DNA of 64,000 nt from an uncultured Bacteroides sp. (GCA_944320865.1 CALUJC010000007.1:17560-81559), one strand, 5' to 3'. Positions 23,376 through 40,859 are shown, numbered from the stretch's first letter. Notes: a model not told the origin generated them from the letters alone. Made by a program: numbers and translations.

Positions 23376-24989
23376 TTACCGCGCCACGAGCTTGATGCGC
23401 AGCAGCGAGGGCTCGGCACCGATGTAGGGGCCTCCCCAGTCCGTCTGGTCGCCGTTCAGTATGCGGGTCATCTGGAACTCGCCATCCTCATAGTAACCTT
23501 CTTCCACCACCAGATATTGCCAGGGCTTCCCTTCGTTTTTCCCTTTGCCACGGAAGGTGAAGCGGCAGCCGGTGCCCACGGCCATAAACTCGTTTTCGCC
23601 CAAGGTGATAATCATGGCCTTGCCGTTGGCGGGGCCGCCGGTCTTCGCCTCATTGCGCCTTCCGCTGCCAAAAGTGATGATGGCTTCCCACTGGCCCAGG
23701 TCGATGGTCTGTTGCGCGTGGTCTTCGGGCTCGATGACGGATTGTATACGCCCCTCAAAAGCCCAGCGCGCCAGTTGCCGCGACATGGGGGCCAACAGTT
23801 TGTACTCGGCGGCAGTGGGGTTGTTGAGGTCGTTCTCCACCTTCTGCGCGGCATCCACGCCGAAGGGCGCGTAGCCAATGCCTTGCTTGATGACTTCGTA
23901 CATGTACTTCACGTGGCCGGTTCCTGTTTCGGGCACCATCAGCGCGTTGTCGGGGCGGGCATAGAGGTCGATGATTTTCAGCACGCGCTCGTCGCCCGTC
24001 AGGTAGATGTCCGGCGCCAGCAGGCCGATGGAGGGTGCCGCAGCTTTCCAGATGGGGATAACGTTGTCCGTGGCGCCCCCGCTTTCGTATTGATTGGGTT
24101 TGAGGTCGGCCAGCGGGTCGCGCAGGGCCACGTTGACATACATGGGCAGTGGGTTGACCGCCTTTCCGGCAGCAGCCACATACTCAATGTAGCTTGCCAC
24201 GTGCCAGGCGTGGAAGTACTCGTCGGCATGCTCGCCGAACACCTCGCTCCACGTGCCCCGGGGCTTGCCTGCGATGCCCAGCTGCTTCAATACCTCAGGC
24301 TTCAGCAACGCTTCGGGCACGGGCTGTTCAAAGAGCTTCTGCGCAGTCTTCGAGTAGTCGCGCACGCTGTACCACGACCCCGGCTCGTTCTGCACCTGCA
24401 CCATGATGACGGTGTGCTGCGGGTCGGCCTCCTTCAGGTAGCCCATGAACCGGGCAAAAGCCTTGGCGTCGGCCTCCATGGCCGCCGTGCAGTGGGGCGA
24501 AGGGGTGTCGACATACGTGCCGTCCTTGGCCATGACGTTGAAGTACTTTTTGGCATCTTGCTTCATCCATTGGGGCATGTAGTGGTTGCTGCCGTTCTTC
24601 CAGGTGGCAAACCACAGCAGCACCAGCCGCATGTCGTGCTGGCGTGCCTGGTCGAGCACCATCTGCACCATCGAGAAGTCATATTGTCCCGGTTGCGGCT
24701 CCACCTGCTCCCAGTAGATGGGTATTTCCAGCGTATTGGCGTGCATGTCTTCCATCACCTGCCACACGCCCGGCAGCATCTTCGGCCAGGTAGACGAGTT
24801 GGACGATTGCCCGCCCAGCATGAGGAAAGGCTCTCCGTCCACCAGCAGGGCATGCCGTCCGTCTTTCTCCACAAGGCGGGGCATCTCGGCCTCCGCCGCC
24901 TGCTGGGCATGGATGACTCCCGTGCCGGCCACACTCAATGCCAGCGCGGCGCACAGTGTTTGCATAAAGTTGGTAACAAGGTGTTTCAT
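23376..24989 (-). CDS. Secreted clan GH-A glycosidase, GH35/GH42-like (DUF5597-type beta-galactosidase-like)
   Basis: Signal peptide present. Motifs LVDGEPFLMLGGQ, NTLEIPIYWEQVEPQPGQYDF, MRLVLLWFATWKNG, VQNEPG (acid/base Glu context). Confidence 0.65.
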   Translation of the reverse strand: MKHLVTNFMQTLCAALALSVAGTGVIHAQQAAEAEMPRLVEKDGRHALLVDGEPFLMLGGQSSNSSTWPKMLPGVWQVMEDMHANTLEIPIYWEQVEPQPGQYDFSMVQMVLDQARQHDMRLVLLWFATWKNGSNHYMPQWMKQDAKKYFNVMAKDGTYVDTPSPHCTAAMEADAKAFARFMGYLKEADPQHTVIMVQVQNEPGSWYSVRDYSKTAQKLFEQPVPEALLKPEVLKQLGIAGKPRGTWSEVFGEHADEYFHAWHVASYIEYVAAAGKAVNPLPMYVNVALRDPLADLKPNQYESGGATDNVIPIWKAAAPSIGLLAPDIYLTGDERVLKIIDLYARPDNALMVPETGTGHVKYMYEVIKQGIGYAPFGVDAAQKVENDLNNPTAAEYKLLAPMSRQLARWAFEGRIQSVIEPEDHAQQTIDLGQWEAIITFGSGRRNEAKTGGPANGKAMIITLGENEFMAVGTGCRFTFRGKGKNEGKPWQYLVVEEGYYEDGEFQMTRILNGDQTDWGGPYIGAEPSLLRIKLVAR

Positions 24990-25073
24990 GTCGTATAAGT
25001 TTTATAGATGTTGGTTATAGTGGTTTGTTCTCTTATGCAAAGGAAGTGGAAAATGCGGGAAAGAGGGGGACAT

Positions 25074-25418
25074 TCAAAATATAGCCGCCAGCTTGCGGAT
25101 TTCATCCAGACGCTGCATGAACGTCTTGTCTTTTCGTGCCACCCGCATGTTGTACTTCGTCTGTAGTCGCATCAGGGTTTCCGCACTTACCCCCAATGCC
25201 GCCTCAAATAGCATCGCTGTTTTTTCAGTCACAGGGCGGCGTGCATTCAGTATCTCGTTCAACACAGAGTACCCCATACCTATTTGTTCCGCCAACTTGC
25301 GTTGCGAAATGCCCCGGTATTCAATTTCGTCTTTCAGCACTTCCCCGGGGTGTGTCGGAAATGCCGGCTCAAGATTGTTGGCTATCATTTTAGGGTCAAC
25401 TCCCGGTATTGTTATCAT
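25074..25418 (-). CDS. higA: HigA-family antitoxin (XRE-type HTH)
   Basis: Motif HPGEVLKDEIEYRGISQRKLAEQIGMGYSVLNEILNARRPVT. An alternative ATG lies at 25388 (MIANNL). The gene lies 11 nt downstream of higB. Confidence 0.8.
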   Translation of the reverse strand: MITIPGVDPKMIANNLEPAFPTHPGEVLKDEIEYRGISQRKLAEQIGMGYSVLNEILNARRPVTEKTAMLFEAALGVSAETLMRLQTKYNMRVARKDKTFMQRLDEIRKLAAIF

Positions 25419-25429
25419 GACTGGCTTGG

Positions 25430-25744
25430 TTATTTATAATGGTTTGACAATTCTGTTATGTTGCATATAGTGGCAATGATTTCACCTTCTTTTGTTTGCT
25501 CCTCAAATTCAATGCGATATTGGTCGTTCACTCGAACGGATGATAGTCCGACCTTGTCACCTTTAAGCTTTTCGTAGTTTAATGCATGATACCTGTTGAG
25601 CTCTAATACATTAGGCACTTCCGACATTAGCTCTATTACACGGATGTATTTCCGCACTATTTGTGGCTGAAAGCGGTGTTTCTTGTCAGTTTTGCCCGTG
25701 AGGTACATTATCTGCAAATATTCTTCTTTGAAAACGATTTCCAT
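25430..25744 (-). CDS. higB: HigB-like RelE/ParE-superfamily toxin (plasmid-maintenance killer family)
   Basis: Start re-set to MEIVFKEEYL (104 aa). Motif YEKLKGDKVGLSSVRVNDQYRIEFE. Toxin-first gene order is typical of higBA. Confidence 0.75.
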   Translation of the reverse strand: MEIVFKEEYLQIMYLTGKTDKKHRFQPQIVRKYIRVIELMSEVPNVLELNRYHALNYEKLKGDKVGLSSVRVNDQYRIEFEEQTKEGEIIATICNITELSNHYK

Positions 25745-25764
25745 CCTTTCGTCTATTGTAATTA

Positions 25765-25772
25765 CAAAGGTA
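25765..25772 (-). promoter_or_regulatory. -7 box TAnnTTTG upstream of higB
   Basis: Minus strand reads tacctttg, 21 nt upstream of the ATG at 25744. Confidence 0.4.
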
Positions 25773-25884
25773 CAACTATCTTTTTGTATTCGCAAAAAAA
25801 GCGAACTCTTTTTGTTCTGCAAGCAGGTTTGCCAAAGAAAACAGTATTTTCAGTAGAACGCACCATTATTAAGAATACAATTAT

Positions 25885-25892
25885 TATATTTG
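25885..25892 (+). promoter_or_regulatory. -7 box TAnnTTTG upstream of the ATPase gene
   Basis: tatatttg, 19 nt upstream of the ATG at 25911. Confidence 0.4.
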
Positions 25893-25910
25893 CAATAAAA
25901 TAAAGAAGCT

Positions 25911-27050
25911 ATGCAGAAACCAACGATATTAAATCCTTTCGTGGTGGGACGATATGTGTCCGAACATTATTTCTGCGACCGGGAAAAAGAAACGGAATTC
26001 TTGGTCAAGCAGGTGGAGAACGGGCGGAATGTAGCACTTATTTCTCCACGGCGCATGGGGAAAACCGGACTGATTTGGCATTGTTTCAGTCAGCCCCGCT
26101 TCAGAGACAATTTCCATACTTTCTTTGTGGACATTTACTCCACCACTTCCTTGGCAGAATTTGTTTACTTATTGGGAAAATCCATTTACGAAGAATTAAA
26201 GCCCAAGAGGCAGGATTGGGCGGAACGTTTTTTCCAAATCATTCGCTCTTTGCGCGTGGGCTTTAAGCTGGATGCTGTCACAGGTGAGCCCGGTCTCGAC
26301 ATCGGTTTAGGCGATATACAGGTGCCGGAAACCACACTCGATGAAATCTTTACTTATCTGGAGGATGCCGATAGACCTTGCTTGGTTGCCATCGATGAGT
26401 TCCAGCAAATCAGTTCGTATGAAGAAAAAAACGTGGAAGCCCTGTTGCGCACCCATATCCAGCAGTGCAAGCATACGCAATTCATTTTCTCCGGGAGCAA
26501 ACGGCATTTGATGAGCAACATGTTCAACTCTTCTTCCAAGCCTTTTTACCAAAGTGCCATCAGCATGAGCCTGGCGCCTATACCGCTGGAGGCCTATGTC
26601 GCCTTCGCTTCCGGGTTGTTTGAAGAACGGGGCAAGCATGTGGAGCCGGGTTTGGTGGAGGCTGTATACCAACGTTTCGAGGGGTGCACCTGGTTTATGC
26701 AAATGTTTATGAATGAGCTGTTTGCCTTGACTGCCCCCGGTGCACTGTGCGGCATAGACAAATTGGAAACTGCCATGACCAATGTTATCCGTGCGCAAGA
26801 AGAAAGTTACAAGGATTTGCTTTCCCATCTTGCCCCCAAGCAAAAAATGGTGCTTCAAGCCATCGCGAAAGAAGGGAAAGCTGCGGGCATCACTTCGGCT
26901 GCTTTTATCAAGAAATACAATCTTCCTTCAGCCAGTTCTGTGCAGTCGGCCGTCAAGCCTTTATTGAGGAATGATTGGGTCACGCACGACGGCGAGGCCT
27001 ACCGGGTGTATGACTACTTTTTTGCCGAATGGCTGAAGATAGAATACTGA
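25911..27050 (+). CDS. AAA+ ATP-binding protein (archaeal-ATPase/DUF234-like family)
   Basis: N-terminal FVGRYVSEHYFCDREKETEFL. Walker A is SPRRMGKTGL. Walker B is LVAIDEFQ. The C-terminus looks winged-helix-like. Confidence 0.7.
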   Translation: MQKPTILNPFVVGRYVSEHYFCDREKETEFLVKQVENGRNVALISPRRMGKTGLIWHCFSQPRFRDNFHTFFVDIYSTTSLAEFVYLLGKSIYEELKPKRQDWAERFFQIIRSLRVGFKLDAVTGEPGLDIGLGDIQVPETTLDEIFTYLEDADRPCLVAIDEFQQISSYEEKNVEALLRTHIQQCKHTQFIFSGSKRHLMSNMFNSSSKPFYQSAISMSLAPIPLEAYVAFASGLFEERGKHVEPGLVEAVYQRFEGCTWFMQMFMNELFALTAPGALCGIDKLETAMTNVIRAQEESYKDLLSHLAPKQKMVLQAIAKEGKAAGITSAAFIKKYNLPSASSVQSAVKPLLRNDWVTHDGEAYRVYDYFFAEWLKIEY

Positions 27051-27070
27051 AACTCGTCTTTTTTATCAAT

Positions 27071-27179
27071 CCTTACATCCCCTCCGTCTACCCCCTTCGC
27101 ACCCGAGTCGTACCCCATTCGGTACTCCTTCGAATGTGCTTCGGCCCTATGGAACGGAAAAATAGCGGACATGGACAGG
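27071..27179 (+). repeat. 109-nt dispersed element, copy A
   Basis: It closely matches the reverse complement of 43012..43120. For example, gtcgtaccccattcggtactccttcgaatgtgcttcggccctatggaacggaaaaa aligns with gtcgtaccccattcggtactccttcggatgcgcttcagccctatggagcggaaaaa. Confidence 0.8.
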
Positions 27180-27255
27180 CGAAAAACAGGCGGGAGAGCG
27201 GGCAATCCGGGAAAATGCTTATCTTCGCAGCCGGATAAGCTTGAACCGGATATAC

Positions 27256-29007
27256 ATGAAACAAACTGCTGCCTCACTCTGCACCCTGTTGCTGCTCTGC
27301 CTGTGCTTCGTGGCTTGCAGGCAGGCGCCTTACCCTGCTTTACTCCTGCAGGCCGACTCGCTGCTGCGGACGGGGCCGGACAGTGCCATGGCCTTGCTGC
27401 GGCAGGCCGCCCCGCTGATGGCGCAGGAGCCCGAGGCCACCCGCATGTACTACCGCCTGCTCTGCGTGAAGGCGGCGGACAAGGCCTACGTGGTCCACAC
27501 CTCGGACAGCCTCATCCGCCCCGCCATAGCTTACTACGAGGAGCACCGGGACAGGCGGCACCTGCCAGAGGCTTACTACTACGGCGGCCGCGTGTATCGC
27601 GACCTGGGCGACGCGCCGCAGGCGCTGGACTATTTGCAGCGGGCCTCGGATATTCTGCCTGAGGGGGAGGGCGACATGCTGAAAAGCAAAATCTACAGCC
27701 AGATGGCCATGCTTTTCCTCTATCAGCACATGTATGATGAAGCGTTGGATATTCTTCGCAAAGCCCATGCGCACAATGTGGCGACCGGTAACGTCAGGAG
27801 CCGTATTTTCAATTTGCGGGATATGGCGGACGCTTTTCGTGGAATCAATCAGATGGATAGTGCTTTATGCTACTTTCAAAAGTCTTACGACCTAGCTTGC
27901 GATAACAGCATGGTTGACCTGGCCAACATGGTTCAGAGCCAAATAGCAAGTATGTATGACTTGCTGGGCGAGTACGATAAGGCGCGAGAGGCTCTGCAGC
28001 AGGCATTTAAGTATAAGCACAAAGCAGGGCAAAGTGCTATCTATTCTATTGCCGCAGATATTTATCTGCATTGCGGGCAAGTGGATTCTGCCTTGTATTA
28101 TAATACCCGCTTGTTGGATATGGGTAACGTCTATGGTAAAAGGGCCGCTTATATGGATTTGGCACAGATGGCTATGGAAAACAACGACGCCAAGAAGGCT
28201 TTGGAATATCTGCATGATTATGCACTTTATACGGATTCTGTTGAGCAGATGACGGATATGGAGACTGTCAGAAGAATGCATGCATTGTATAATTATCAGC
28301 TACGTGAAAAGGAAAATGCCCGGTTAAAGGCTGCCAATCGACAGAAGCAGACATTGATTAATTATATGCTCGTTGCCGGTTTGGTTTTGTTCTCATTGTT
28401 GTTTGCCTACCTGCAATATAGCCGTAGGAAGAGAATGGAGCTACAGATTCAATTAGAGAAAGCCGAACGCCTCAAAAATGAATTGTATAGGCAAAGCGAA
28501 AGCTACATTAAAGAGAATAATGCTAAAATAACCCGGCTGGAAGAACAGTTGCGGGAAAGTGATGCTTCTTTGCAGAAACAGCTGGAAGCACAAAGAGAAG
28601 CGATGCTTTACGAAAACAGGCAGGCTTATATGGCTTTAGAGAAACAAAAGCAGGTGTCGGCAGCTATTAACGACTCGGGTATACGGAAAGACATTTTGGT
28701 CAAATTGAATACTTGCGATAGTTGTAAGAAGGTATTGACCGTGACTGATTGGCGCGCCATAGAGCAGGAGATTGAGCAAATTTCATCGGGCTTTAAAATA
28801 AGGTTATACAATCTATGCAGTAAACTTAGCGAAAACGAGTATCATATCTGTCTGCTGATAAAACTTGGATTTCAGCCTACAGAAATAGCCAAGCTGACCT
28901 TGCACAGCAAAGAAAGCATTACTTCTACCCGGCGCCGTTTGTATGAAAAAGTATTTGGCAGCAAGGGTAGCCCGAAGGATTGGGACGAGGTGATTTATGC
29001 TCTTTGA
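27256..29007 (+). CDS. Transmembrane one-component regulator: lipoprotein-type signal, TPR sensor region, TM helix, coiled coil, LuxR-like HTH
   Basis: Start re-set to the ATG at 27256 (the ORF-track start is a TTG). The lipobox is LCFVAC and TPR-like repeats follow. A TM segment LINYMLVAGLVLFSLLFAYLQY is followed by RRKR. A long heptad coiled coil runs MELQIQLEKAERLKNEL... The C-terminus is SENEYHICLLIKLGFQPTEIAKLTLHSKESITSTRRRLYEKV. Confidence 0.75.
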   Translation: MKQTAASLCTLLLLCLCFVACRQAPYPALLLQADSLLRTGPDSAMALLRQAAPLMAQEPEATRMYYRLLCVKAADKAYVVHTSDSLIRPAIAYYEEHRDRRHLPEAYYYGGRVYRDLGDAPQALDYLQRASDILPEGEGDMLKSKIYSQMAMLFLYQHMYDEALDILRKAHAHNVATGNVRSRIFNLRDMADAFRGINQMDSALCYFQKSYDLACDNSMVDLANMVQSQIASMYDLLGEYDKAREALQQAFKYKHKAGQSAIYSIAADIYLHCGQVDSALYYNTRLLDMGNVYGKRAAYMDLAQMAMENNDAKKALEYLHDYALYTDSVEQMTDMETVRRMHALYNYQLREKENARLKAANRQKQTLINYMLVAGLVLFSLLFAYLQYSRRKRMELQIQLEKAERLKNELYRQSESYIKENNAKITRLEEQLRESDASLQKQLEAQREAMLYENRQAYMALEKQKQVSAAINDSGIRKDILVKLNTCDSCKKVLTVTDWRAIEQEIEQISSGFKIRLYNLCSKLSENEYHICLLIKLGFQPTEIAKLTLHSKESITSTRRRLYEKVFGSKGSPKDWDEVIYAL

Positions 29008-29120
29008 CGGAAAGGATAACTTTCCGGATAATCTTCCTATTGCGGCTTTTATTATTTTAGCTTGTAATCTTAATAAGTCTTTGTTGTACAACGCATAATG
29101 TGCAATGACAAGGGGCACCT

Positions 29121-29169
29121 GCACATTTGTTTGCACACTCCTTAGGCAAAAGCACACGATTTTGCACAC
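29121..29169 (+). promoter_or_regulatory. Candidate operator: four GCACA(C/T) boxes in two 12-bp-spaced pairs
   Basis: gcaca starts at 29121, 29133, 29152 and 29164. tttgcacac occurs twice, 31 bp apart (29130 and 29161), just upstream of the -7 box of the toxin operon. Confidence 0.35.
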
Positions 29170-29201
29170 TTCATTTGCAGGATAAAGGACCTGTAAAAGC
29201 A

Positions 29202-29209
29202 TATTTTTG
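29202..29209 (+). promoter_or_regulatory. -7 box TAnnTTTG upstream of the DUF3244-like/MACPF operon
   Basis: tatttttg, 34 nt upstream of the ATG at 29243. Confidence 0.45.
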
Positions 29210-29242
29210 CAGCAATCAAAGTTGAACTTAAATTATAAAATT

Positions 29243-29626
29243 ATGAAGTTGTTTATTTGCTGCATCCTAACTGTATTTTGTATGAATCTGTATGCCAGTG
29301 ATAGTAGAAAAAACATTTGGCTATCGTGTTCATATTACAATGATTATGATAAACTGAGAAGTACAGATGACCGTTCTTTCGTTACAGAGCTTTCAGCCTG
29401 TTATGACAGCAACACTATTTATTTGTATTCAGAGAAGGCTTTCCACGAGGTGCACATCGTGGTTACAGACGCCAGTGGCTCCATGCTTTGTGAGGAATAT
29501 ACTTCTTTAGTTTCGGGGGCAGAACACTCCTTGTTTATTGGTGATATTGCTGTCGGTGAGTACCAGTTGATTATTGATACAGAGATAGGCCGGTATCAAG
29601 GCTCTTTTCAAATAGCTAATGAGTAA
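29243..29626 (+). CDS. Small secreted beta-sandwich protein, DUF3244-like
   Basis: Start re-set to MKLFICCILTVFCMNLYA (signal peptide). The pattern TIYLYSEKAFHEVHIVVTDASGSMLCEEY...GEYQLIIDTEIGRYQGSFQI resembles Bacteroidales DUF3244 proteins. Confidence 0.55.
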   Translation: MKLFICCILTVFCMNLYASDSRKNIWLSCSYYNDYDKLRSTDDRSFVTELSACYDSNTIYLYSEKAFHEVHIVVTDASGSMLCEEYTSLVSGAEHSLFIGDIAVGEYQLIIDTEIGRYQGSFQIANE

Positions 29627-29667
29627 ATAAGTATCACTAAATATTAAACTTAAAACCGTAAAGTAAC

Positions 29668-30956
29668 ATGAAAACAAGAAATTTATGCCTTAGCATGGCA
29701 GTAGGGCTGTTGTTTTGCCTATCAGCCTGTACTGAGAATGAATTCGATTTGCCCACAGAAGTTCAGCCGGAACAACTTCTGGCTACAAGGGCATTGGAAG
29801 CGGATACGTTGAAGCGGATTCTATTGTGCTTTTCCAGGTAGACCCGGATACGCTTCCTCCCCGAATTCAGACACTGGCAAGTACAAACTATGTGCCTTAT
29901 CTTAGTGATAACCTGTTTGCCATCAGGAATATGCCGATACGTATCTCTACTCAAGAGAGTACACCTAATTATTTGACATTTAGTGCCCAAGGGGAAGCTG
30001 TTGTGCCTAAAGCCAAAAATGATAAGGATGATGAAAAACAACGGTTTTATATAGAAGTATTGCCTGCTACAGCGGGTATTCCTTATGTAATTCGAACATG
30101 GAATGGCGGTTATCCGCTTGCCGTAGGGCAATATAGCAATAACCCGGAGCATAAACTGCTATATGCAGCCCCCACTACTACGGCAACTTTGCCGGCTGCT
30201 GCTTGGGAAATTTATGCATCTTCTACTTCAGGTTATCTTACGGTAGAAAGCCCGGCATTGATGGAAATGGGCAGTAGCGGGAGTTGGATGGACTATTATT
30301 ATTGCGTGTGGGAACATCAAGGCGCAGGTAATGAAGTAACTTTCAGCAAATATACGCAGAAGGATGGGCAGGAGTTCGCTTTTACGCCTGTGGATGAAGT
30401 TGAGATAGAAGATATTCAATTTTTTAATAATTATGCATCCTCTGTTACGCAGAAGAATGATGCTACAATAGAAGAGACTTATACGAATTATAGTCATTCA
30501 GATGAACCTTATGACATGCCGTTTGAAAAAGATTTTACTGAAAGCTATAACTTCAACGAGTTTAAGGGTGTCAATTTTGAGTATTCCAATCCTTCTATAT
30601 CTGTTCTAAGGCCTTCTGTGTCGCAAGGTACTTTACTGCTTCCTTCAAATGTGAATGATTCCATATTTGTCACTTATAGCGGTAAAAGTGCTATAAATCA
30701 TATTTCGAATGAGGTGCAATTAGATGTTCCTGCAAGAACTCGATTGACTTTAACTTATCATGTTCATGTTTATGAGGTGAAGGCTTATTATGAAGCTACC
30801 CTTAAAATTTCGTATGCAGATGAAGAAAGACGGACTAAAGTTGCCGGAATCTGGGAAGGTACTGTCTATGTAGACGAAGTAGTAAATACTGATCATGATT
30901 ATAGATATACGAATATAGATACAGGTGTTATTTCCGGCAAACCAAGATTACGTTAA
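29668..30956 (+). pseudogene. Frameshifted lipoprotein gene (lectin-like N-terminal half, beta-rich C-terminal half)
   Basis: The ATG at 29668 opens a lipoprotein signal (MKTRNLCLSMAVGLLFCLSAC-TENEFD) that stops at 29839..29841. The 376-codon body (ORF 29826..30956) is in the -1 frame, which is open from 29742. Both frames are therefore open over 29742..29838, so a 1-nt deletion or 2-nt insertion lies there. Confidence 0.6.
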
Positions 30957-30971
30957 TAAAAAATAGAAGCA

Positions 30972-32609
30972 ATGAAAAGAACAATTATAAGTTTATTGTC
31001 AGGCATGTTGCTGTTTGCGGCATGCACAAATGAAATGACCGGTCCTCAGGCTGGCATTGAATCTGGAACTCAGAAAGAAGTAGTGTTGCAGGAAAGAGCA
31101 TCTTATCTGCCTACGGAATGGACAGTGAAAAAGAATAGCAAACCGGCTACGCGCAGCGTACAGTCGGTAGAAGAGTATATCGGGCGATCGTATGACATTG
31201 GAAATACCATATTAGGTGATCCTGATAATGTCCGACTGCCGGTATTGGATTATGAGAAAATCAAGTCGAGAGTAATTAGTGATTTTGCAGGAACAACTGA
31301 AATCGCTTCATATGCGTATGCTGATTATGACCGATATGAGGAGAATGTGCTTGAAACAAAGGAAATAAGTTCTGGCTTTTCTATCAATTTGCTCATTTTT
31401 AAATTTGGAAGAGAAAAGAAAACGACAGAGACTTTTAAGACGCAAACTATTGATGAAAATAGGCAAGTGTTTGGAGAAGTGGACGTGGAGGTACGTGACC
31501 AAGCTTATCAAATATCAACGACATCGGCTACACTTAAGAATTTGGCTGCCAATGCGCTTTCAGAAGATTTCAAGTTCGACCTGTATTTTGCCCCGATGGT
31601 AGAGGTTTTAAATAATTATGGTCCATTTGTTATTACCGGCTATTATTCTGGTGGAAGGGCTACAGCTATGTATTATGGCTACAGTTCAGAAAATACTACC
31701 GCTGAGAATAGAGAAAAAGATTTGTCTAAAGATATTAATGCGTCTTTTGCATGGGGGAGCCAAAAGAAAGATTCACTGAAATCTGTAGGATTGGATTTTG
31801 GCTTTGGAACTGATAATGGTAATAGCGAGGCTTATGAACGGTCGTTGGAAGAGGTTTATATGCAAGTGAAAACACAAGGAGGCAATAAGAATTTACAATG
31901 CAATACAAATGCAGGTGAAGTAGGTACTATGAGTGTAGATCTGTCTAGTTGGTTAAGTTCGTTAGACGATAAGAGTACGCATACTTTAATTGGCATTCGG
32001 GATGGCGGGCTTACCGGATTGAATTCTTTTATGTTGGAAGAAAATTTTAAACGCAGGATGCAAGATACACATTTGGGACACTTAAATGTGGATGCATTCT
32101 TGGAGCCTTATATTGAGATAGGCAGGGTGTATGTACGTGCCACATCTTCCGGCGAAAAGCTGTATAAGATTGCCCCTATACTGAACACAAGACAGGGTGA
32201 TAAAATTGTGCTAAATAATGATGAAGATGCACAGTTTACTGACGAAGAGTTGAGGAAAAATAACGATAATGATTACTTCATGACTCAAAGTCAGGCTATT
32301 GCTGCGGAGAAAGGGCAGTATTATAAATGTGCCATCACGGCCAATCCTAATCTTAGGGTAATGCCTTTGCTTAGAGTACCACTTTGCATTGAACTTGGTG
32401 AGATTGATGAGAGTCGGATGTGCAAGTTCTTCAATGAAGAAAACAATATGTGGTACATTTACGACCCGGTAGCACTTACTGCTTATTCTTTCTATTTAGA
32501 CGACTTTGTCTTAGATATGTATGGCATGAGGGAGTGGGTAGAAAGTCTGCCTACAAAGAGTATTTCCATGGTGAACTTGTATATGCGTTATACCATAATC
32601 GGGTTGTAA
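30972..32609 (+). CDS. MACPF-domain lipoprotein (BSAP-like candidate pore-forming toxin)
   Basis: Lipobox is LLFAAC-TNE. MACPF-type signature ...FAPMVEVLNNYGPFVITGYYSGGRA fits [YW]-G-x-x-[FYV]-x6-G-G. Length is 545 aa. The gene starts 15 nt after the previous one. Confidence 0.65.
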   Translation: MKRTIISLLSGMLLFAACTNEMTGPQAGIESGTQKEVVLQERASYLPTEWTVKKNSKPATRSVQSVEEYIGRSYDIGNTILGDPDNVRLPVLDYEKIKSRVISDFAGTTEIASYAYADYDRYEENVLETKEISSGFSINLLIFKFGREKKTTETFKTQTIDENRQVFGEVDVEVRDQAYQISTTSATLKNLAANALSEDFKFDLYFAPMVEVLNNYGPFVITGYYSGGRATAMYYGYSSENTTAENREKDLSKDINASFAWGSQKKDSLKSVGLDFGFGTDNGNSEAYERSLEEVYMQVKTQGGNKNLQCNTNAGEVGTMSVDLSSWLSSLDDKSTHTLIGIRDGGLTGLNSFMLEENFKRRMQDTHLGHLNVDAFLEPYIEIGRVYVRATSSGEKLYKIAPILNTRQGDKIVLNNDEDAQFTDEELRKNNDNDYFMTQSQAIAAEKGQYYKCAITANPNLRVMPLLRVPLCIELGEIDESRMCKFFNEENNMWYIYDPVALTAYSFYLDDFVLDMYGMREWVESLPTKSISMVNLYMRYTIIGL

Positions 32610-32610
32610 T

Positions 32611-33033
32611 ATGAAAGGAAATATAAGAAGTATAAGGACATGGCTTATCGCTGTGCTCTGCTTTATAGCTGTTAGTGGGTGCAGTGACGACCACGATGAC
32701 ACTTCTGCCCAACAGTTGAGTACGGAGTTCCTGAAGCAAACAGTATGGAAAGGGGAACGCATCCGTTATGACAACGGGGTGGAATATGAGCGGAATAGCA
32801 TCAGCATTCTGTTTGCTACCGATAGCCGAGGCAGTTGTGAGGAATGGGATGCTTCCGGGGGTGAAACGGGATACTATTTCTCGTACACTGTGGATGGCAA
32901 CTTGCTGACAATAGATGGCGGTGGCATAGAAGGTTGGTGGCTGCTCATGGAGCTGTCAGAAGACAGGATGGTGCTTGCCTCCGATTTGGAGGAACGGATT
33001 TCAGAGAAACTGGTTTTGGATAGGTTCTATTGA
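32611..33033 (+). CDS. Small lipoprotein, lipocalin-like (candidate immunity/accessory protein)
   Basis: Lipobox is AVSGC-SDDHDD, a strong acidic export signal. The ATG lies 1 nt after the MACPF stop (taatatg). A W..ER...LxL pattern (GWWLLMELSEDRMVL) resembles lipocalin-like domains. Confidence 0.5.
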   Translation: MKGNIRSIRTWLIAVLCFIAVSGCSDDHDDTSAQQLSTEFLKQTVWKGERIRYDNGVEYERNSISILFATDSRGSCEEWDASGGETGYYFSYTVDGNLLTIDGGGIEGWWLLMELSEDRMVLASDLEERISEKLVLDRFY

Positions 33034-33075
33034 ATCTGCTTTATTGAGGCATCCTTGTCATTGCAATTTCAAGAC

Positions 33076-33115
33076 TGCTGCCGGTATCCCTCCCTGGGGT
33101 ATCGGCAGCATTTTT
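33076..33115 (+). terminator. Rho-independent terminator closing the toxin operon
   Basis: Stem tgctgccg / cggcagca with a 19-nt loop, followed by ttttt. Confidence 0.55.
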
Positions 33116-33129
33116 AGCAGGCAGCGCGT

Positions 33130-33876
33130 TCACTTCTTAATGACGGCCCGCACCACAAACCAGGCGTGGAGGAGGAAGGTGGCGGGCCAGCCGTAGTGGC
33201 GGGTCATGATGCGGAAGCGCTCCAGCAGGGAGGCGCGGTGGTTGCGGGTGGTGAGGCCTTCGTCGAGGTAGTCGATGAGGGTGAGGCGGGTGTTGTGCGT
33301 GGTGCGGGCTTGCTTCAGGATGCGGATGCACCAGTCGAAGTCGGCCGAGAAGCGGTAGCGCAGGTCGTAGCGGGGGGCCAGGGAGGCTTTGGGCCAGAAG
33401 GCCTGGTGGCACACCAGCATGCCTTGGCGGAAGCTGCGCCACGTGAGCTGCCGGGGGGCACGGAGGCGGCGCATGCGCACGAAGTGGCCTTCATGGTCCA
33501 CCAGCTCGGTTTCGCCATAGATGACGTCGGGCAGCTCCTGCCCCGCGAGGCTGTGCACGGCTTGCAGCAGGGTGTCGTCTTCGTGGAAGCTGTCGCCAGC
33601 GTTGAGGAAGATGAGGTAGTCGCCCGTGGCGCGGGCCATGCCTTTGTTCATGGCGTCGTACAGTCCCTTGTCGGGCTCGCTGACGACGAGGGCGATGCGG
33701 TCGCGGTAGCGGTGCACGATGTCGAGGGTGCCGTCGGTAGAGCCTCCGTCGATGATGATGTACTCCACGTGGTGGTAGGTCTGGGTGATGACGCTTTGTA
33801 TGGTGTCTTCCAGCACGGCGGCGGCGTTGTAGGTGACGGTGATGACGCTGAACCTGGGGGTGGGGTGGTGAAGCAT
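33130..33876 (-). CDS. Family 2 glycosyltransferase
   Basis: Motifs FSVITVTYNAAAVLEDTIQSVITQTY..EYIIIDGGSTDGT. DxD-context motif is FLNAGD. Confidence 0.9.
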   Translation of the reverse strand: MLHHPTPRFSVITVTYNAAAVLEDTIQSVITQTYHHVEYIIIDGGSTDGTLDIVHRYRDRIALVVSEPDKGLYDAMNKGMARATGDYLIFLNAGDSFHEDDTLLQAVHSLAGQELPDVIYGETELVDHEGHFVRMRRLRAPRQLTWRSFRQGMLVCHQAFWPKASLAPRYDLRYRFSADFDWCIRILKQARTTHNTRLTLIDYLDEGLTTRNHRASLLERFRIMTRHYGWPATFLLHAWFVVRAVIKK

Positions 33877-33888
33877 GGGCGCAGGGGG

Positions 33889-35139
33889 TTAGAGCTTGTT
33901 GTAGAGGTCAATGTACTTCTTTGCCACCACGTTTTCGGCGTAGTGGGTGGCGGCCTTGCGGGCGGCTTGCTCGCAGAGGCTGTCGTAGCCCGGCTCGGTG
34001 AGCAGCCAGTAGATGCCGTTGGCAAAGTCGCCGGCGTCGCGGTAGGTGGCCACGTAGCCGTTGTGCAGGTGGTCTATCATCTCGGGTATGCCGCCCACGT
34101 TGAAGCCCACGCAGGGGGTGCCGCAGGCCATGGCTTCCATGATGGTGTTGGGCAGGTTGTCTTCCAGCGAGGGGGTGGCAAAGAGGTCGACGGCGTTGTA
34201 GATGTCTACCAGCTGGTGGTCGTCGGTCACAAAGTCCAAGGGGTAGACCTTGAAGGGGAGCAGGCTGCCCAGCTGTTGGGAGTTGCGGCCGAAGGCCACC
34301 ACGGCCAGACGGTCGCGCAGCTCAGGGTGCTGGTCGGCCAGCAGGCGGCAGGCCTTCACGAGGTAGTCTATGCCCTTGCGCTTGTCGGTTATCTTGACGG
34401 AGCCGAAGAGCATGAGCCGCATGTCCTGGGGAAGCTGGAGCTTGTGGCGTGCCGCTGCCTTGTCGTGCGGGCGGAAGAGGTTGGTGTTGATGGCGTTGGG
34501 GATGCTGGTGACGGGCATGCCTTGCAGCAGGGCGCTTTGGCGTGCCTGCCCTTCGAGCCACCGGCTGCAGGTGACGAAGTGTATCTGCCGCCCGGCGTAG
34601 AGGGCCTGCTTGCGGCGGAAGGTGGTGGCGGAGAGGTCTTTGTTCCGCCGCCCGCCGGCCAGGTAGGGGCAGTTGTGGCAGGCCGTGCGGTAGTGGTCGC
34701 AGCGGCGGGCATAGTGGCAGATGCCGGTGCAGGGCCACATGTCGTGCATGGTCCACACCACGGGTTTGCCCGAGTCGAGTATCTTGCGGATGTCTTTCAG
34801 CGAGAGCATGCCTTGGTTCACCCAGTGCAGGTGGACGATGTCGGCCTGCTGGAATTCGGGCAGCGAGGTGATGTCGTTGCCCGTGTTGGCAATGTCCACG
34901 GCAAAGAGGTTCTGGCGGCTGAAGCGGTTGGCTGTCCAAATGACCACGCGTTCCCATACAAACTGCCACACCATGCGCCAACTGGGTTTCAGCGCCACTA
35001 CGGTGCTTTGGCCGGTTTGCTTGTTGCGCACCAGCATCTTGGCCTTGATGCCTTGCGCCTTGAGGGCTTCCATCAGCCGGTTGGCGGCTATGGCGGCTCC
35101 GCCGATGCGTTCGGAAGTGTTGATGAGGATTACTCGCAT
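33889..35139 (-). CDS. GT4 (GT-B fold) glycosyltransferase
   Basis: N-terminal ILINTSERIGGAAIAA and C-terminal ATPSLEDNLPNTIMEAMACGTPCVGFNVGGIPEMI. Confidence 0.9.
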   Translation of the reverse strand: MRVILINTSERIGGAAIAANRLMEALKAQGIKAKMLVRNKQTGQSTVVALKPSWRMVWQFVWERVVIWTANRFSRQNLFAVDIANTGNDITSLPEFQQADIVHLHWVNQGMLSLKDIRKILDSGKPVVWTMHDMWPCTGICHYARRCDHYRTACHNCPYLAGGRRNKDLSATTFRRKQALYAGRQIHFVTCSRWLEGQARQSALLQGMPVTSIPNAINTNLFRPHDKAAARHKLQLPQDMRLMLFGSVKITDKRKGIDYLVKACRLLADQHPELRDRLAVVAFGRNSQQLGSLLPFKVYPLDFVTDDHQLVDIYNAVDLFATPSLEDNLPNTIMEAMACGTPCVGFNVGGIPEMIDHLHNGYVATYRDAGDFANGIYWLLTEPGYDSLCEQAARKAATHYAENVVAKKYIDLYNKL

Positions 35140-35212
35140 GTTTTTGTCATCGTTTAGGGTTAGGAGAACTCTTTACGGGGGCAAAGTTAGGGTTTTTCTT
35201 GGGAATATGCTT

Positions 35213-35396
35213 GTTTACCGTATAGTAAATCGTCCGTTTGCCGTATAGTAAACGGTCTGTTTACCGTATAGTAAACGGTCCGTTTACCGTATAGTAAATG
35301 GTCTGTTTACCGTATAGGCATCCGGCGACCCCTCGGATAGGCATCCGGCGGACCCTCGGATAGGTATTCGGCAGACCCTCGGATAGGTATCCGGCG
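35213..35396. repeat. 8 x 23-bp strictly phased array made of two related unit types
   Basis: Unit starts are 35213, 35236, 35259, 35282, 35305, 35328, 35351 and 35374. The first units are gtttaccgtatagtaaacggtcc. Unit 5 is the hybrid gtttaccgtataggcatccggcg. The last units are gaccctcggataggcatccggcg. Each unit has an internal dyad, for example ccgtttac..gtaaacgg. Confidence 0.85.
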
Positions 35397-35401
35397 GCCT
35401 G

Positions 35402-36328
35402 TCACCTGCCGAAGTCGCCCCGCAGCGTGCGCTTGATGCGCCGGATGGCCTTGGCCCAGAAGCCGAAGTGGCGGCGGTAGTAGCGCGCGAGGCATTGGCG
35501 TGCGGCCTCGTTTTCCTCCACAGGGGAGATGGGGGCGACGGGCAATGGCTCCATCCACAGCTTGGAGCGGTAGAGGCCTCCGCCGCCGCAATGGGTGCCG
35601 CTGCCGTCGAAGCCGTCGTTCAGCACCAGCGAGCGGCCCACGTTGAGCGAGAGCACGTCGGCCAGGAAGAGGCTGGCATTCCAGCGGATGGCCCACGAGT
35701 CGTTCTTCCCCTCCACCTGGCGGCGCAGCATGCGGGTGTAGCGGTAGGTGCCGTCGAAGTCGAAGCGCCGCGTCAGTCCGCGCCGCTGCAGCTCGTCCAG
35801 CAGGGCGCGGCCGTCGGGGTTGAACAGCCGCCAGGCCCTTTGCCACGTGGCCCATCCCCAGCTGCCCGTCCAGCGGATGAGGAAGGTGGGGGGCAGGGCC
35901 GGGTCGCCGGTGAAGTCGCATGCCTGGATGTGGCCCACGCGTGGCTCGTCCCGGTACGCCTCCAGCGCGTCGTTCATGAAGCGCAGGAAGTAGGGCGACA
36001 GCACCAGGTCGTCTTCCAGCACGATGACGCGGCCGTAGCGGTTCACCTGTTCGGTCACCCCGGCAATGATGCTGCGGGCCAGTCCCCAGTTTTCCGCGCG
36101 CTCAATGATGTCCACCTGCGCGAAGCCGCGGATGGTGCGCAGGTAGCGGCGCACCTCCTGCACGGCGGGGCGTGCGGCATCATTGCGCGGGGCGTCGCTG
36201 TACACTATCAGGCGGCTCTGCCGGGCTTCGGCGTTCCGGCACAGGCTCTCCACCAGGCGGCGCGTGTGCTGCGGGCGGTTGTAGGCAAAGAGCAGGATGG
36301 GGGCAAGGCGGTTATCGGTTGTTTCCAT
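35402..36328 (-). CDS. Glycosyltransferase, GT-A fold (GNT-I-like/family-2-like)
   Basis: Motif PILLFAYNRPQHTRRLVESL...IVYSDAPRN and acidic motif LEDDLVLS. It lies within the glycosyltransferase cluster. Confidence 0.65.
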   Translation of the reverse strand: METTDNRLAPILLFAYNRPQHTRRLVESLCRNAEARQSRLIVYSDAPRNDAARPAVQEVRRYLRTIRGFAQVDIIERAENWGLARSIIAGVTEQVNRYGRVIVLEDDLVLSPYFLRFMNDALEAYRDEPRVGHIQACDFTGDPALPPTFLIRWTGSWGWATWQRAWRLFNPDGRALLDELQRRGLTRRFDFDGTYRYTRMLRRQVEGKNDSWAIRWNASLFLADVLSLNVGRSLVLNDGFDGSGTHCGGGGLYRSKLWMEPLPVAPISPVEENEAARQCLARYYRRHFGFWAKAIRRIKRTLRGDFGR

Positions 36329-37316
36329 AAGGCTGATGGGTTAGTTTGCAATATATTTTGGTGAAGAACCGGCGGAGGCTGTACCGCCCGAGGCGTTGGC
36401 GGATGAAGGCGGGCAGCATGCGCAGGTAAGAGGCGGTGAGGCCGGCCTCCCGCAAGCAGGCAAACCATAGGCCGCGCTTTGGCACTTGCAGGCTGTTCCA
36501 TGGCTTCAGCGGCCCCACGTAGTGCACTTGCACGGGGCGCGCCAAGGCCCGGGTGAACATGGCCAGCCTTTCGGCCTCGCCCTCGGGAAGCCAACGGCTC
36601 GTCGAGACAAAGTGGACGTCTCCGCGAGAGAAAGGCTTGTAATAGGTGTTGCACACCACGTATTCCATAGGCAGGTGGCGCACGCGCGGCCCGCAGCACA
36701 GCGCCAGGCAGTCTTGCTCGGGCAGGGGCAGGCGGTGGTAGTTCCGGCGGTAGAAGTCTGTCAGCCTCTCCAGCATCCCGTCGCGGCGGATGGTCTTGAG
36801 GTTGAACAGCAGGTAGCCGGCCATGATTTCCTGCTCCAGGGCTTGCTTTTCTTGCGGTGAAAACAAGTCGTCGGCATAAGCTTTCATGCGCCCGCTTTCC
36901 AGTACCTGCCCTACGCCGGCATAGTAGAAGTCTTCGTCGGGAAACAGGAAGTAGGAGGGAGAGATGTCTCCTGTGAACACGACATCGACATCAGAGCAAA
37001 GAATGCGGTCGTATTGCGGGAATATCTCTGCGGCTATCAGCTTGTAGTAGATTTCTTTGGAGAAGTGCGATTTCCCTTGCCCGATATCGCCTTGCCCATC
37101 AAAGTGTGAGACATCGACAAATTGCAGGTCGGCATTGGGAAAGCGTTTTACCAAGCGTGTGAGTCTCTTTTGGATGGCCTGGGGGATGGAGGTGTGCAAT
37201 ACGTACAATTTATATTGGTATAGCGGGGCGGCATGGCGCAACAATGAGTAGAAGGCCACGGCAGCAGGCACCGCGTAGTAGCGGTCGAAGGTGAAGAATA
37301 TAGGTATTTGCTTCAT
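36312..37316 (-). CDS. Family 8 glycosyltransferase
   Basis: Start re-set to MKQIPIFFTFDRYYAVPAAVAFYSLL. Motif ILCSDVDVVF (DxD). There is a 4-nt ATGA overlap with the upstream GT2 and a 17-nt overlap with the downstream gene. Confidence 0.8.
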   Translation of the reverse strand: MKQIPIFFTFDRYYAVPAAVAFYSLLRHAAPLYQYKLYVLHTSIPQAIQKRLTRLVKRFPNADLQFVDVSHFDGQGDIGQGKSHFSKEIYYKLIAAEIFPQYDRILCSDVDVVFTGDISPSYFLFPDEDFYYAGVGQVLESGRMKAYADDLFSPQEKQALEQEIMAGYLLFNLKTIRRDGMLERLTDFYRRNYHRLPLPEQDCLALCCGPRVRHLPMEYVVCNTYYKPFSRGDVHFVSTSRWLPEGEAERLAMFTRALARPVQVHYVGPLKPWNSLQVPKRGLWFACLREAGLTASYLRMLPAFIRQRLGRYSLRRFFTKIYCKLTHQPYGNNR

Positions 37317-38275
37317 GGGCGTAGGGGATTGATGATGTATCGCCCGTGGTCGCGGATGAAGGCCAGGGGCAGGAAGAAGGCACGCAGGCATTGCACGGCG
37401 CCCTGCACGCCGGGGGCAGCTTCTTGCCTATGCCTCAGGCAGAGCAGGCAGGCGGAGAGAATGCCCCACAGGCTCCCCTTTGCCATGAGGCGGACGGCTT
37501 GCCCGGCGGTGTCATCCCGGAAAGGCACTTGCCCCAGCAGGGAGAAGTAGAGGGCGGTGCGTCGCCTGTTGTCTGCCTTCCACAGGGCGCGGATGGCTTG
37601 CAGGTAGCCGTGCCATTTGCTTGCTTTTGGCGTATCGCTCCGGTAGGTGGCGGCCTCTTCATGCCTCCGCCAACGCACCAGCGGGGTGTGCAGATAGCGC
37701 ACCCTGCCCATGCTGCCGGCCAGGGTGAACAGCAGGTAGTCGTAGGACACGTTGTAGCCCTTGAACGGTTTCAGCTTCTCCCGCACCTCTTGCCGGAACA
37801 GCATCTGGTGGCCGTAGGCGCGTGGGTAGAGTATGGCGCACAGCGGGGGGAAAGACGTGGGCAATGGGGTGGTATATAGCAGGCGGGGTTTCGGACTGCC
37901 GTCCATCACGTAGGAGTTGTGGAAGATGAGCGGGCTGTCGCCTATCTCCCGCATCAGTGTCTCCAGTTTGTCCGGCAGCCAGATGTCGTCTTGGTCGCAG
38001 CAGGCTATATACTCTCCCGTGGCACGTTGCAGGGCGGTGAGAAAGTTCCGGTTGAACCCCAGCCGTCGCGGGTTGGCATGAAAGCGGATGTTCCTGTCGG
38101 GATATTGCTCCCCGTAGGTGTGGACAATCTGCCCGGTGCCGTCTGTAGAGCAGTCATCCTGCACAATGAGCTCGTAGAACGGGTAAGTCTGGGCGAGCAG
38201 CGAGTCTATTTGCTCCCGCAGGTAGGCCTCCCCGTTGTAGGTGCAGAGTATGATGGATATCTTCCGTGTACGCAT
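37313..38275 (-). CDS. Family 2 glycosyltransferase
   Basis: Motif ISIILCTYNGEAYLREQIDSLLAQTY..ELIVQDDCSTDGT. CDQDDIW motif is present. Confidence 0.9.
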   Translation of the reverse strand: MRTRKISIILCTYNGEAYLREQIDSLLAQTYPFYELIVQDDCSTDGTGQIVHTYGEQYPDRNIRFHANPRRLGFNRNFLTALQRATGEYIACCDQDDIWLPDKLETLMREIGDSPLIFHNSYVMDGSPKPRLLYTTPLPTSFPPLCAILYPRAYGHQMLFRQEVREKLKPFKGYNVSYDYLLFTLAGSMGRVRYLHTPLVRWRRHEEAATYRSDTPKASKWHGYLQAIRALWKADNRRRTALYFSLLGQVPFRDDTAGQAVRLMAKGSLWGILSACLLCLRHRQEAAPGVQGAVQCLRAFFLPLAFIRDHGRYIINPLRP

Positions 38276-38279
38276 GGCC

Positions 38280-39281
38280 TTATCGTGCTTTTATCTTCTG
38301 CAAGAGGGTGATGATGCGGTCGTACAGCCTTTTGCCGGGGGTGATGTGCGGGATGCCGGTGTAGCGCGATGCCCTTGCCCAAAAGGCCTGCTCGTCCTGT
38401 ATGCAAGGCTTATCCACCAGGAGTTTATACAGGCGATACAGCCCGCGCTTTTTCTCATAGGGCAGGTGCCACACGGCAAGGTGCTCGTCGCCGGGGTGCA
38501 CATTGTTGAAGCGTGGAGTGGTCCACATGCGTTTCACGTAGCGGTTGCCTATGGTGTTGCGCAGGTGCAGGCGTTCGGCCAGCACGCTGAGGAACAGGGC
38601 TTCCTCGTTCAGCTTGGGCAGCCCTTGGCGGAAGCGTTGCAGGTTGTATTGCCACAAAGGCCGGTAGCCCTCGTTTACCCGTGCTACGGCATCGCCGCGC
38701 AGGGCAATGAATTCCCCGCCGTAATAGCTGAGGGGGGGCGACGGTGCTTCGCCGTAGCAATCGGCATACAGCGCTTCCATCTGCTGCAGGTTTATGCCGT
38801 TGAGCGGCTCGGCAGGGTCGGTGGCCTGCTCGTAGAGGGCGCAGCCTTGGGCTTCTACTTCCCGGAACAGCGGGGCAAGGGAATGTCGGCACAGACAGTC
38901 GGCATCACATACCAGCAAGGTATCAGTCGCCGCCATTCGGCCCTCCATGTAGCGCAGGATGTCGTACAGGTAAAACTGGTTGCGCCATGCCTTGTACCAG
39001 CCTTCGGGAGGCATGCACCGGTAGGGCAGGCGTATCACCTCCACTTGCAGGCGTGCAAACAGTTGTTCCAGATAGGTAGGCAACTGTTGCGCGTTGGTGA
39101 AAAACAGCAGCCGGCTTTCCGGGTTGTAGTGCCGGAAGGTGACAAAGAAAGGCACTTGAATCTGCATGTAGATGGAGTGCGTCAGTCCGGAATCCCCCCG
39201 TTGCCCGGCTTGGGGATAATAGCTGGCATCTTTGGCAGACTCCTTGTAAAACCAGGTGGCGATATAAGATGTGGAACTCAT
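38280..39281 (-). CDS. Hypothetical protein; possible nucleotide-sugar transferase
   Basis: No family recognised. The motif LLVCDADCLC is DxD-like. The gene sits inside the GT cluster and overlaps the wzx stop by 4 nt. Confidence 0.45.
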   Translation of the reverse strand: MSSTSYIATWFYKESAKDASYYPQAGQRGDSGLTHSIYMQIQVPFFVTFRHYNPESRLLFFTNAQQLPTYLEQLFARLQVEVIRLPYRCMPPEGWYKAWRNQFYLYDILRYMEGRMAATDTLLVCDADCLCRHSLAPLFREVEAQGCALYEQATDPAEPLNGINLQQMEALYADCYGEAPSPPLSYYGGEFIALRGDAVARVNEGYRPLWQYNLQRFRQGLPKLNEEALFLSVLAERLHLRNTIGNRYVKRMWTTPRFNNVHPGDEHLAVWHLPYEKKRGLYRLYKLLVDKPCIQDEQAFWARASRYTGIPHITPGKRLYDRIITLLQKIKAR

Positions 39282-40852: not shown

Positions 40853-40859
40853 TAAACAG

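Follow-up and report, generated by a model that had tools for sequence, protein, structure and literature searches.

A probable BSAP-5-type toxin cassette, horizontally acquired and with one gene frameshifted, in an uncultured Bacteroidales genome

The Bacteroidales secreted antimicrobial proteins, or BSAPs, are lipoproteins of the cell surface or of outer-membrane vesicles (OMVs) that bear a lipoprotein export signal, and the BT_3439-type proteins with D2 and D3 domains form a BSAP group whose receptor is unknown (PMC12853789). In B. thetaiotaomicron, BT_3442-BT_3433 was described as a putative operon whose products share lipoprotein signals, the Cys being followed by an acidic residue that is conserved (Xu et al. 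2010, PMC2954219), and BT_3439-3441 were co-induced 60-96-fold in co-culture with Akkermansia (PMC8264420). Classical BSAPs need no immunity gene, since their receptor is replaced (2026 BSAP-1 preprint). The CDCL toxins are cleaved after TR or TK, and the surface lipoprotein BcdI blocks CDCL pore formation (PMC11169675). Activation by surface proteases is common to BSAP-1 and the CDCLs. Here we describe a locus in which the parts of the B. thetaiotaomicron operon recur in the same gene order, at positions 27,256 to 33,115 of a 64,000-nucleotide stretch of DNA from an uncultured Bacteroides sp. (GCA_944320865.1 CALUJC010000007.1:17560-81559). We refer to the whole stretch as the window. We consider the block a likely BSAP-5-type antibacterial toxin cassette that was acquired horizontally and corresponds to BT_3442-BT_3438.

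ORF (open reading frame) calling placed five genes on the + strand of a low-GC block (~28.0-33.0 kb), in which the GC content was 34-47% compared to 55-69% in both flanks. The gaps among the last four genes were 41, 15 and 1 nt. An AT-rich block with one regulator and exactly these gaps had been proposed by a reading made from the sequence alone (the sequence-only reading), and the GC profile and ORF coordinates bear this out. The order regulator - DUF3244 - 5b - 5a - 5i, on one strand and with tight spacing, is that of the BSAP-5 system, and was the same in L019, L020 and further loci and in BT_3442-3438. The features of the block are as follows.

27256..29007, + strand: BT3442-family membrane-spanning regulator, 583 aa (NCBIfam BT3442_fam, E 5.2e-34; Pfam TPR_12, 2.4e-13).
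29121..29168, + strand: candidate operator-like direct repeats, GCACA-N7-GCACA twice, 31 nt apart, just 5' of the promoter.
29202-29209, + strand: TATTTTTG, a box of the Bacteroidetes -7 promoter type (TAnnTTTG), 34 nt before the ATG at 29243.
29243..29626, + strand: DUF3244 small secreted beta-sandwich protein (BT_3441-like), 127 aa, with a signal of the signal peptidase I (SPI) type (Pfam PF11589).
29668..30956, + strand: BSAP5b-like lipoprotein gene (5b, gene 2), a pseudogene in the window through a 1-nt deletion; lectin-like N-domain and aerolysin-type pore module.
30972..32609, + strand: BSAP5a-type MACPF lipoprotein (5a; MACPF, D2 and D3), intact, 545 aa (NCBIfam BSAP5a_fam, Pfam, PDB 3KK7).
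32611..33033, + strand: BSAP-5i-like small lipoprotein (5i), putative immunity protein, 140 aa, C-SDDHDD, starting 1 nt past the MACPF stop codon.
33076-33110, + strand: intrinsic-terminator hairpin, 15 bp with 9 GC, followed by a T-run; it lies between convergent genes and closes the unit.

NCBIfam release 20.0 (June 2026) holds curated equivalog models for BSAP5a (NF053771), BSAP5b (NF053772), BSAP-5i (NF053773) and the BT3442 family (NF053779). All four align along the full length of the cassette proteins (for 5b, the intact allele described below), and the MACPF protein alone passes its cut-off. A B. theta-like locus downstream of ftsZ (L020) scores 423 bits for 5b and 150.3 bits for 5i, above both cut-offs, and the N-terminus of its MACPF protein is nearly identical to that published for BT_3439; the curated BSAP-5 system therefore corresponds to the BT_3442-BT_3438 cluster. 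The homologues of 5b and 5i that flank the MACPF gene support the earlier proposal of a multi-gene MACPF system in place of a lone BSAP. That reading had also regarded the architecture as undescribed among BSAPs, which does not hold, given the published layout of BT_3442..BT_3433 (PMC2954219), the reported co-induction (PMC8264420) and the NCBIfam 5a/5b/5i models. The architecture is not new: the window cassette belongs to a system already described and by now curated, of which it is a divergent and partly inactivated member.

The MACPF gene gave the clearest assignment. Its product scored 605 bits against NF053771 (E 1.4e-181), above the cut-off of 500, and matched the Pfam families MACPF_D2 (6.5e-37), MACPF_D3 (6.5e-22) and MACPF (9.4e-5). 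Residues 30-545 aligned to PDB 3KK7, the crystal structure of B. thetaiotaomicron BT_3439 (E 2e-126). These matches uphold the MACPF signature that had been noticed in the 545-aa product and supply the PF01823 hit proposed as its check. All three lipoproteins of the operon have lipoboxes with acidic residues after the Cys (LSAC-TENEFD, FAAC-TNE and VSGC-SDDHDD), as had been claimed along with the export of all four products; the latter claim fails for gene 2, where a frameshift cuts the mature part from the signal peptide. An [ST][RK] dipeptide was found in the N-terminal tethers of 21 of 26 5a homologues (T60-R61 in the window) and of 12 of 19 5b homologues (T40-R41; 29785-29790). By analogy, this dipeptide may be a C11-protease site, as it resembles the TR/TK cleavage sites of CDCL toxins.

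The product of gene 2 is more divergent from its curated model. An intact allele, P0113, scored 312.5 bits against NF053772 (E 5.6e-93, positions 1-416 of 418), under the cut-off of 380. No Pfam family matched the 5b family above its cut-off; against PF01117, gene 2 scored 13.7-14.1 bits (E ~0.03), under the gathering score of 24.3. A profile built from 19 members of the 5b family matched the pore-forming module of LSL, a haemolytic lectin from Laetiporus (1W3A, residues 142-308), with E 3.5e-6, and aerolysin came next with E ~0.7. A model of the intact allele was built with AlphaFold2 (AF2) on a 7-sequence alignment. Its mean predicted local distance difference test score (pLDDT) was 59.7, with values of 74-88 in the C-terminal half and 44-74 in the N-domain. 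Foldseek searches with this model returned LSL (1W3A), lamprey LIP, Dln1, SaroL-1, epsilon toxin, Cry51, parasporin-2 and aerolysin, all at probability 1.0. By profile and by fold, gene 2 has an aerolysin/LSL-type pore module. The N-domain has a QxF/xxW/QxF pattern, and RicinB_lectin_2 matched it weakly, at E 0.02 in 2 of the 19 members and again weakly in three other contigs (L035-L037). The LSL and SaroL-1 alignments span both domains of the model, the N-domain itself being of low confidence, and a beta-trefoil fold for the N-domain is plausible. The sequence-only reading of gene 2 as a lectin-like, beta-rich partner is in keeping with its membership of the BSAP5b family of pore-forming toxins. 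The analogy that this reading drew with the aegerolysin/MACPF pleurotolysins is abandoned: the partner is aerolysin-like, and no cassette protein had an aegerolysin match in Pfam, PDB or Foldseek. An exhaustive search recovered the 5b family in ~320 representative clusters among 1.84 billion.

At 1289 nt, gene 2 of the window is not divisible by 3 and is read as two ORFs in different frames, 29668-29841 (57 aa, with the signal peptide, lipobox and tether) and 29826-30956 (376 aa). Alignment of near-identical metagenome contigs showed that one C is missing from GAAGCG[C]GATTC, between 29816 and 29817, in the window and in L001, and is present in L002 and L004. An uninterrupted 429-aa lipoprotein is encoded by L002, L003 and L005, and in L003 the intact allele lies in the same genomic context as in the window. 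Across the contigs, truncated products of 341 aa were found on 21 and of 376 aa on 10, and intact 429-aa variants on ~30. All 18 contigs with the window's exact neighbouring allele of the family 2 glycosyltransferase (GT2) carry the broken form, and they come from four sample series. This recurrence on many independent metagenome contigs ruled out an assembly artefact. Programmed frameshifting at 29816-29841 was also rejected, as there is no canonical slippery heptamer and the intact allele differs by that single base. Past the first ~250 nt the broken and intact alleles do not differ, which makes the lesion a recent one. The deletion puts signal peptide and mature protein in separate ORFs, so that only three products of the four-gene operon are exportable as written. 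The mature 5b domain would no longer be exportable in the window's lineage, and the strain most likely makes 5a and 5i only, in which case immunity would be kept and toxicity would be at most attenuated or independent of 5b. The 5a gene is intact and identical in 25 contigs.

A 5b-like gene of a different cassette lineage (L035:4751-5994), whose MACPF protein (P0014) is 45% identical to that of the window, is split into 334 and 80 aa by another 1-nt deletion (TGGAGTTT[G]TCCC). This split was seen on a single contig and may be an assembly error. In L036 (4750-5994) and L037 the corresponding 5b-like gene is intact (414 aa), and the 5a and 5i-like genes are intact in L035, L036 and L037.

Tentatively, and with the balance of our judgement against it, the loss of 5b with 5a and 5i kept could be a recurrent natural state rather than an accident. 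The basis for this suggestion is that about half of the contigs with the window's cassette are frameshifted (about 21-31 compared to ~30 intact), in at least four sample series, together with the second deletion in L035. If true, it would mean either a polymorphism between producers and immune non-producers of a MACPF + aerolysin toxin, or a 5a that acts without 5b. The 5b-null and intact alleles in one genomic context offer a ready-made comparison for whether 5b is needed.

The 140-aa lipoprotein is, by sequence, a homologous but divergent member of the BSAP-5i family. It scored 80.4 bits against NF053773 (E 1.2e-22, positions 4-134 of 135), under the cut-off of 150. Its match to Lipocalin_4 (PF13648) was 14.8 bits (E 0.056), under the cut-off of 22.4, and 2 of 8 family members matched. 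The proposal of a lipocalin-like immunity or chaperone factor is therefore supported in its immunity part by the BSAP-5i match and not in its lipocalin part. Homologues of 5i abut the MACPF gene in at least nine loci (L008, L011, L019, L020, L021, L025 and L035-L038). The first operon gene encodes a 127-aa protein that passes the 25-bit cut-off of PF11589 (DUF3244) with 35.1 bits (E 1.3e-8), as anticipated; its counterpart BT_3441 was described as Ig-like (Xu 2010, PMC2954219). DUF3244 genes occupy the equivalent position in L009, L017, L019 and L020. Searches of profiles against the PDB returned nothing informative for either DUF3244 or 5i.

The gene upstream of the operon encodes the dedicated membrane-spanning regulator that had been predicted. 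It matched NF053779 over positions 7-544 of 563 with 117.9 bits, under the cut-off of 940, and the NCBIfam SusR_regulator model at 9.6e-7. The protein has a lipoprotein-type signal (FVAC) whose N-terminal Cys is invariant across the family, a periplasmic TPR domain, a transmembrane helix near residues 372-395 followed by SRRKR and a coiled-coil stretch, and a LuxR-type helix-turn-helix (HTH) at the C-terminus. A profile of the C-terminal ~90 residues matched the DNA-binding domains of VraR, DesR and ComA (LuxR/NarL-type, best E 1.4e-4). It reads as a SusR-like one-component transmembrane regulator, with a periplasmic TPR sensor and a cytoplasmic HTH. A BT3442-like regulator of the same architecture lies 5' of the cassette in seven GTDB loci, and in four of them regulator and 5b are separated by a DUF3244 gene that passes its cut-off.

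Immediately past the stop codon of the regulator gene is a 7-bp hairpin (29008-29026). The operon has the TAnnTTTG box and the terminal hairpin that the sequence-only reading had assigned to it. The motif is not enriched across the window (32 matches compared to 27 expected), and only its position therefore supports TATTTTTG as the promoter. In a direct pattern search, GCACA-N7-GCACA had two matches in the whole 64 kb, both at 29121-29168, compared to 0.23 expected. Other lineages have different repeated words in the intergenic region between regulator and operon, upstream of the DUF3244 gene (L009, L016, L017, L019, L020 and L029). In place of the four GCACA copies of the window, these words are GTCCACGC (twice), GTCCATATC (twice), GTCCAC (three times), TGTGTACTnnGTGTACTC (twice) and GTGTAA. 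Such lineage-specific repeats look like co-varying operators for the BT3442-family HTH.

Conservation was surveyed in 22 GTDB genomes with a full-length D2/D3-type MACPF gene and upstream sequence. A 5b homologue lay immediately 5' of 5a in 17 of the 22 loci, with a gap of -4 to +40 nt and often a 4-nt overlap. The pair was found in Bacteroides, Phocaeicola, Parabacteroides, Segatella/Prevotella, Hallella, Mediterranea, Muribaculaceae, Limibacterium and Sphingobacterium, and the pairwise-identity matrices of 5a and 5b were correlated (r = 0.94). The window proteins were 34-42% (5a) and 20-32% (5b) identical to those of the GTDB loci. The suggestion of a conserved cassette is supported, as co-conservation extends across genera; it is widest for the 5b-5a pair, and the regulator (seven loci), DUF3244 and 5i are less widespread.

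Several loci had other surroundings. In L038 (1-11509), genes for a 5b-like protein (473 aa), a MACPF protein (548 aa, 52% identical to that of the window) and a 5i-like protein (140 aa) lie inside an integrative conjugative element (ICE) that carries a TraG-type coupling protein, TraM, DUF4138 and two integrases; this triad is without a regulator or DUF3244 gene. In four Prevotella/Phocaeicola metagenome-assembled genomes (MAGs; L012, L013, L018 and L024), a C39-peptidase ABC exporter and an OMP_b-brl_3 protein precede the 5b-5a pair, a BACON + BspA-type leucine-rich repeat (LRR) lipoprotein follows it, and these neighbours replace the regulator, DUF3244 and 5i genes. A Prevotella MAG (L030:8700-8954) has a degraded locus, a 68-aa MACPF remnant beside a BACON/LRR-type lipoprotein gene.

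The base composition of the cassette, ~40% GC in a host genome of ~60%, differs from that of its flanks, and we therefore take it, on composition, to be foreign and horizontally acquired. The step falls inside the regulator gene, where GC is 63-69% over the first 450 nt, 49% over the next 300 nt and ~41% thereafter. The chimeric GC of 27256-29007 points to a recombination junction inside this gene; a resident regulator gene may have been the site at which the cassette recombined into the genome. Two further features lie towards the left edge of the low-GC block.

25074-25418 (HigA) and 25430-25822 (HigB), - strand: HigA/HigB toxin-antitoxin pair at the left edge of the block (Pfam HTH_3, 1.5e-8; HigB-like_toxin, 2.7e-9).
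25911..27050, + strand: ATPase_2/AAA family protein (Pfam ATPase_2, 4.2e-9).

The ATPase_2 gene accompanies the cassette in all close relatives (L001-L006 and L031-L034). In strains with another left flank (TonB receptor / FecR / sigma factor), synteny with the window begins at 25061, beside the HigA stop codon, and at the junction 152 bp from the promoter and 5' end of the ATPase_2 gene are present in duplicate (window 25865-26016; L002:3914-4065). This duplication looks like a recombination scar.

On the other side, a polysaccharide locus of native GC (33130-40837, - strand) converges on the cassette and encodes GT2, GT4, GT2, GT8, GT2, a 333-aa protein without a Pfam match and a Wzx-type flippase. 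Its far end varies by strain, with a flippase of 519 or 482 aa and extra SLFN_AlbA_2 genes in some. The adjacency to glycosyltransferase and Wzx genes recalls the BSAP-2/3 loci and is absent from other 5a/5b loci. A receptor-replacement role of the BSAP-2/3 kind may exist for this locus, but the other loci give it no support; the Bacteroides cassettes follow ftsZ. A repeat of ~100 nt, whose copies at 27077-27175 (+ strand) and 43015-43122 (- strand) are ~87% identical and share an exact core of 26 nt, precedes the regulator gene and metG, in equal orientation relative to each gene; it had no Rfam match and no stable fold (z = 0.07). An Rfam scan of 24500-44000 found no RNA family.

We propose the following mechanism for the intact cassette. 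The regulator would bind the GCACA repeats 5' of the TAnnTTTG promoter and switch on the four-gene operon, probably in answer to an envelope or competitor signal. Once lipidated, 5a, 5b and 5i would be flipped to the surface of the cell or into OMVs by means of their acidic lipoprotein export signals. The lectin-like domain of 5b, the D2/D3 domains of 5a, or both, would bind a surface receptor on a related target cell. Both N-terminal tethers may be cleaved by a surface protease at their conserved T-R site. The toxin proteins would then oligomerise into beta-barrel pores in the target outer membrane, and surface-exposed 5i would shield the producer, as BcdI does for CDCL producers.

Some observations weigh against the assignment to a BSAP-5-type toxin cassette. 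The 5b, 5i and regulator proteins of the window do not reach the curated NCBIfam cut-offs, the N-terminal (lectin) half of the 5b model is of low confidence and the 5i fold could not be modelled (single-sequence AF2 pLDDT 38). We found no publication naming BSAP-5 in the literature, including the source of the NCBIfam names, so the toxin and immunity roles rest on NCBIfam annotation. Protease activation, operator binding and the role of DUF3244 are steps that we infer. In addition, 5b is absent from 5 of the 22 D2/D3-type MACPF loci (three Pedobacter, one Rikenellaceae and one Mediterranea) and is perhaps not obligatory. This last point also favours a view that we consider unlikely, in which the MACPF protein needs no partner and is a single-component BSAP of the same kind as BSAP-1 to -4, 5b is a dispensable accessory or an independent second toxin, and the frameshift costs little. 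The intact, invariant 5a beside a broken 5b in the window is in keeping with that view, as is the second, independent frameshift in L035. However, it does not readily account for the adjacency and frequent 4-nt overlap of 5b and 5a, or for their co-divergence. NCBIfam moreover names the two as a and b components, and the cassette holds an immunity-type gene for which classical BSAPs have no need.

Still less probable is that the cassette now has no function in the window's lineage and persists there as a decaying remnant. In favour of this, the 5b frameshift is fixed in all 18 contigs with the window's GT2 allele. Against it, the four remaining ORFs are intact, promoter and terminator are kept, no further decay is seen in the 5b alleles outside the first ~250 nt, and intact alleles coexist in the same genomic context (L003). 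We give very little weight to a function other than bacterial antagonism, whether against eukaryotic (host or protist) membranes or in transport or OMV biogenesis. The closest structural relatives of 5b (LSL, SaroL-1, Dln1 and aerolysin) do act on eukaryotic cells, and a 'cross-membrane transport system' was proposed by Xu 2010 (PMC2954219). Against this, the cognate small surface lipoprotein belongs to a family with an immunity annotation, a bacterial competitor induces the B. theta operon, and antibacterial action is common to all characterised MACPF and CDCL lipoprotein toxins of the Bacteroidales. A horizontally acquired BSAP-5-type antibacterial cassette remains the likely identity of the block.

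This class of cassette joins two unrelated pore-former superfamilies, a lipoprotein immunity factor and a private transmembrane regulator, and is far less studied than BSAP-1 to -4 or the CDCLs. The window instance adds a very divergent lineage in a high-GC Bacteroidales host, as well as testable candidate operator repeats and protease sites. The low-GC island in the window and the ICE-borne triad in L038 are evidence of horizontal spread.

Among known systems, pleurotolysin (PlyA aegerolysin and PlyB MACPF) shares with the cassette the pairing of a MACPF gene with one for a small or second beta-rich protein. The predicted 5b fold matches both LSL (1W3A) and SaroL-1 (7QE4) over ~360 columns, whereas 5b is a bacterial lipoprotein paired with a MACPF protein and has 12-13% identity to them. 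[quoted passage not shown] In contrast, BSAP-1 to BSAP-4 are single genes that act with receptor replacement, and the window has a second pore-former gene, an immunity-type gene and a dedicated regulator. The two-component CDCLs with BcdI (PMC11169675) also comprise an adjacent pair of Bacteroidota lipoprotein pore-formers and an immunity surface lipoprotein in one operon, are cargo of mobile elements and have T-R/T-K protease sites in their N-terminal propeptides. The CDCL pair are paralogues of one fold, whereas 5a and 5b belong to unrelated superfamilies (MACPF and aerolysin); BcdI is ~30 kDa and 5i ~13 kDa, and the two are likened here by their putative role. The closest counterpart is the BSAP-5 system, BT_3442-BT_3438. 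The window's 5a and 5b are ~40% and ~31% identical to their Bacteroides orthologues, 5b is frameshifted, the host is a ~60% GC member of the Bacteroidales, and the cassette lies beside a glycosyltransferase/Wzx locus, not downstream of ftsZ, without a second MACPF paralogue, a porin or a BT_3433-like gene. In both, the same five parts follow in the same order on the same strand, 5a combines MACPF, D2 and D3, and toxins and immunity protein alike are lipoproteins whose Cys is followed by acidic residues.

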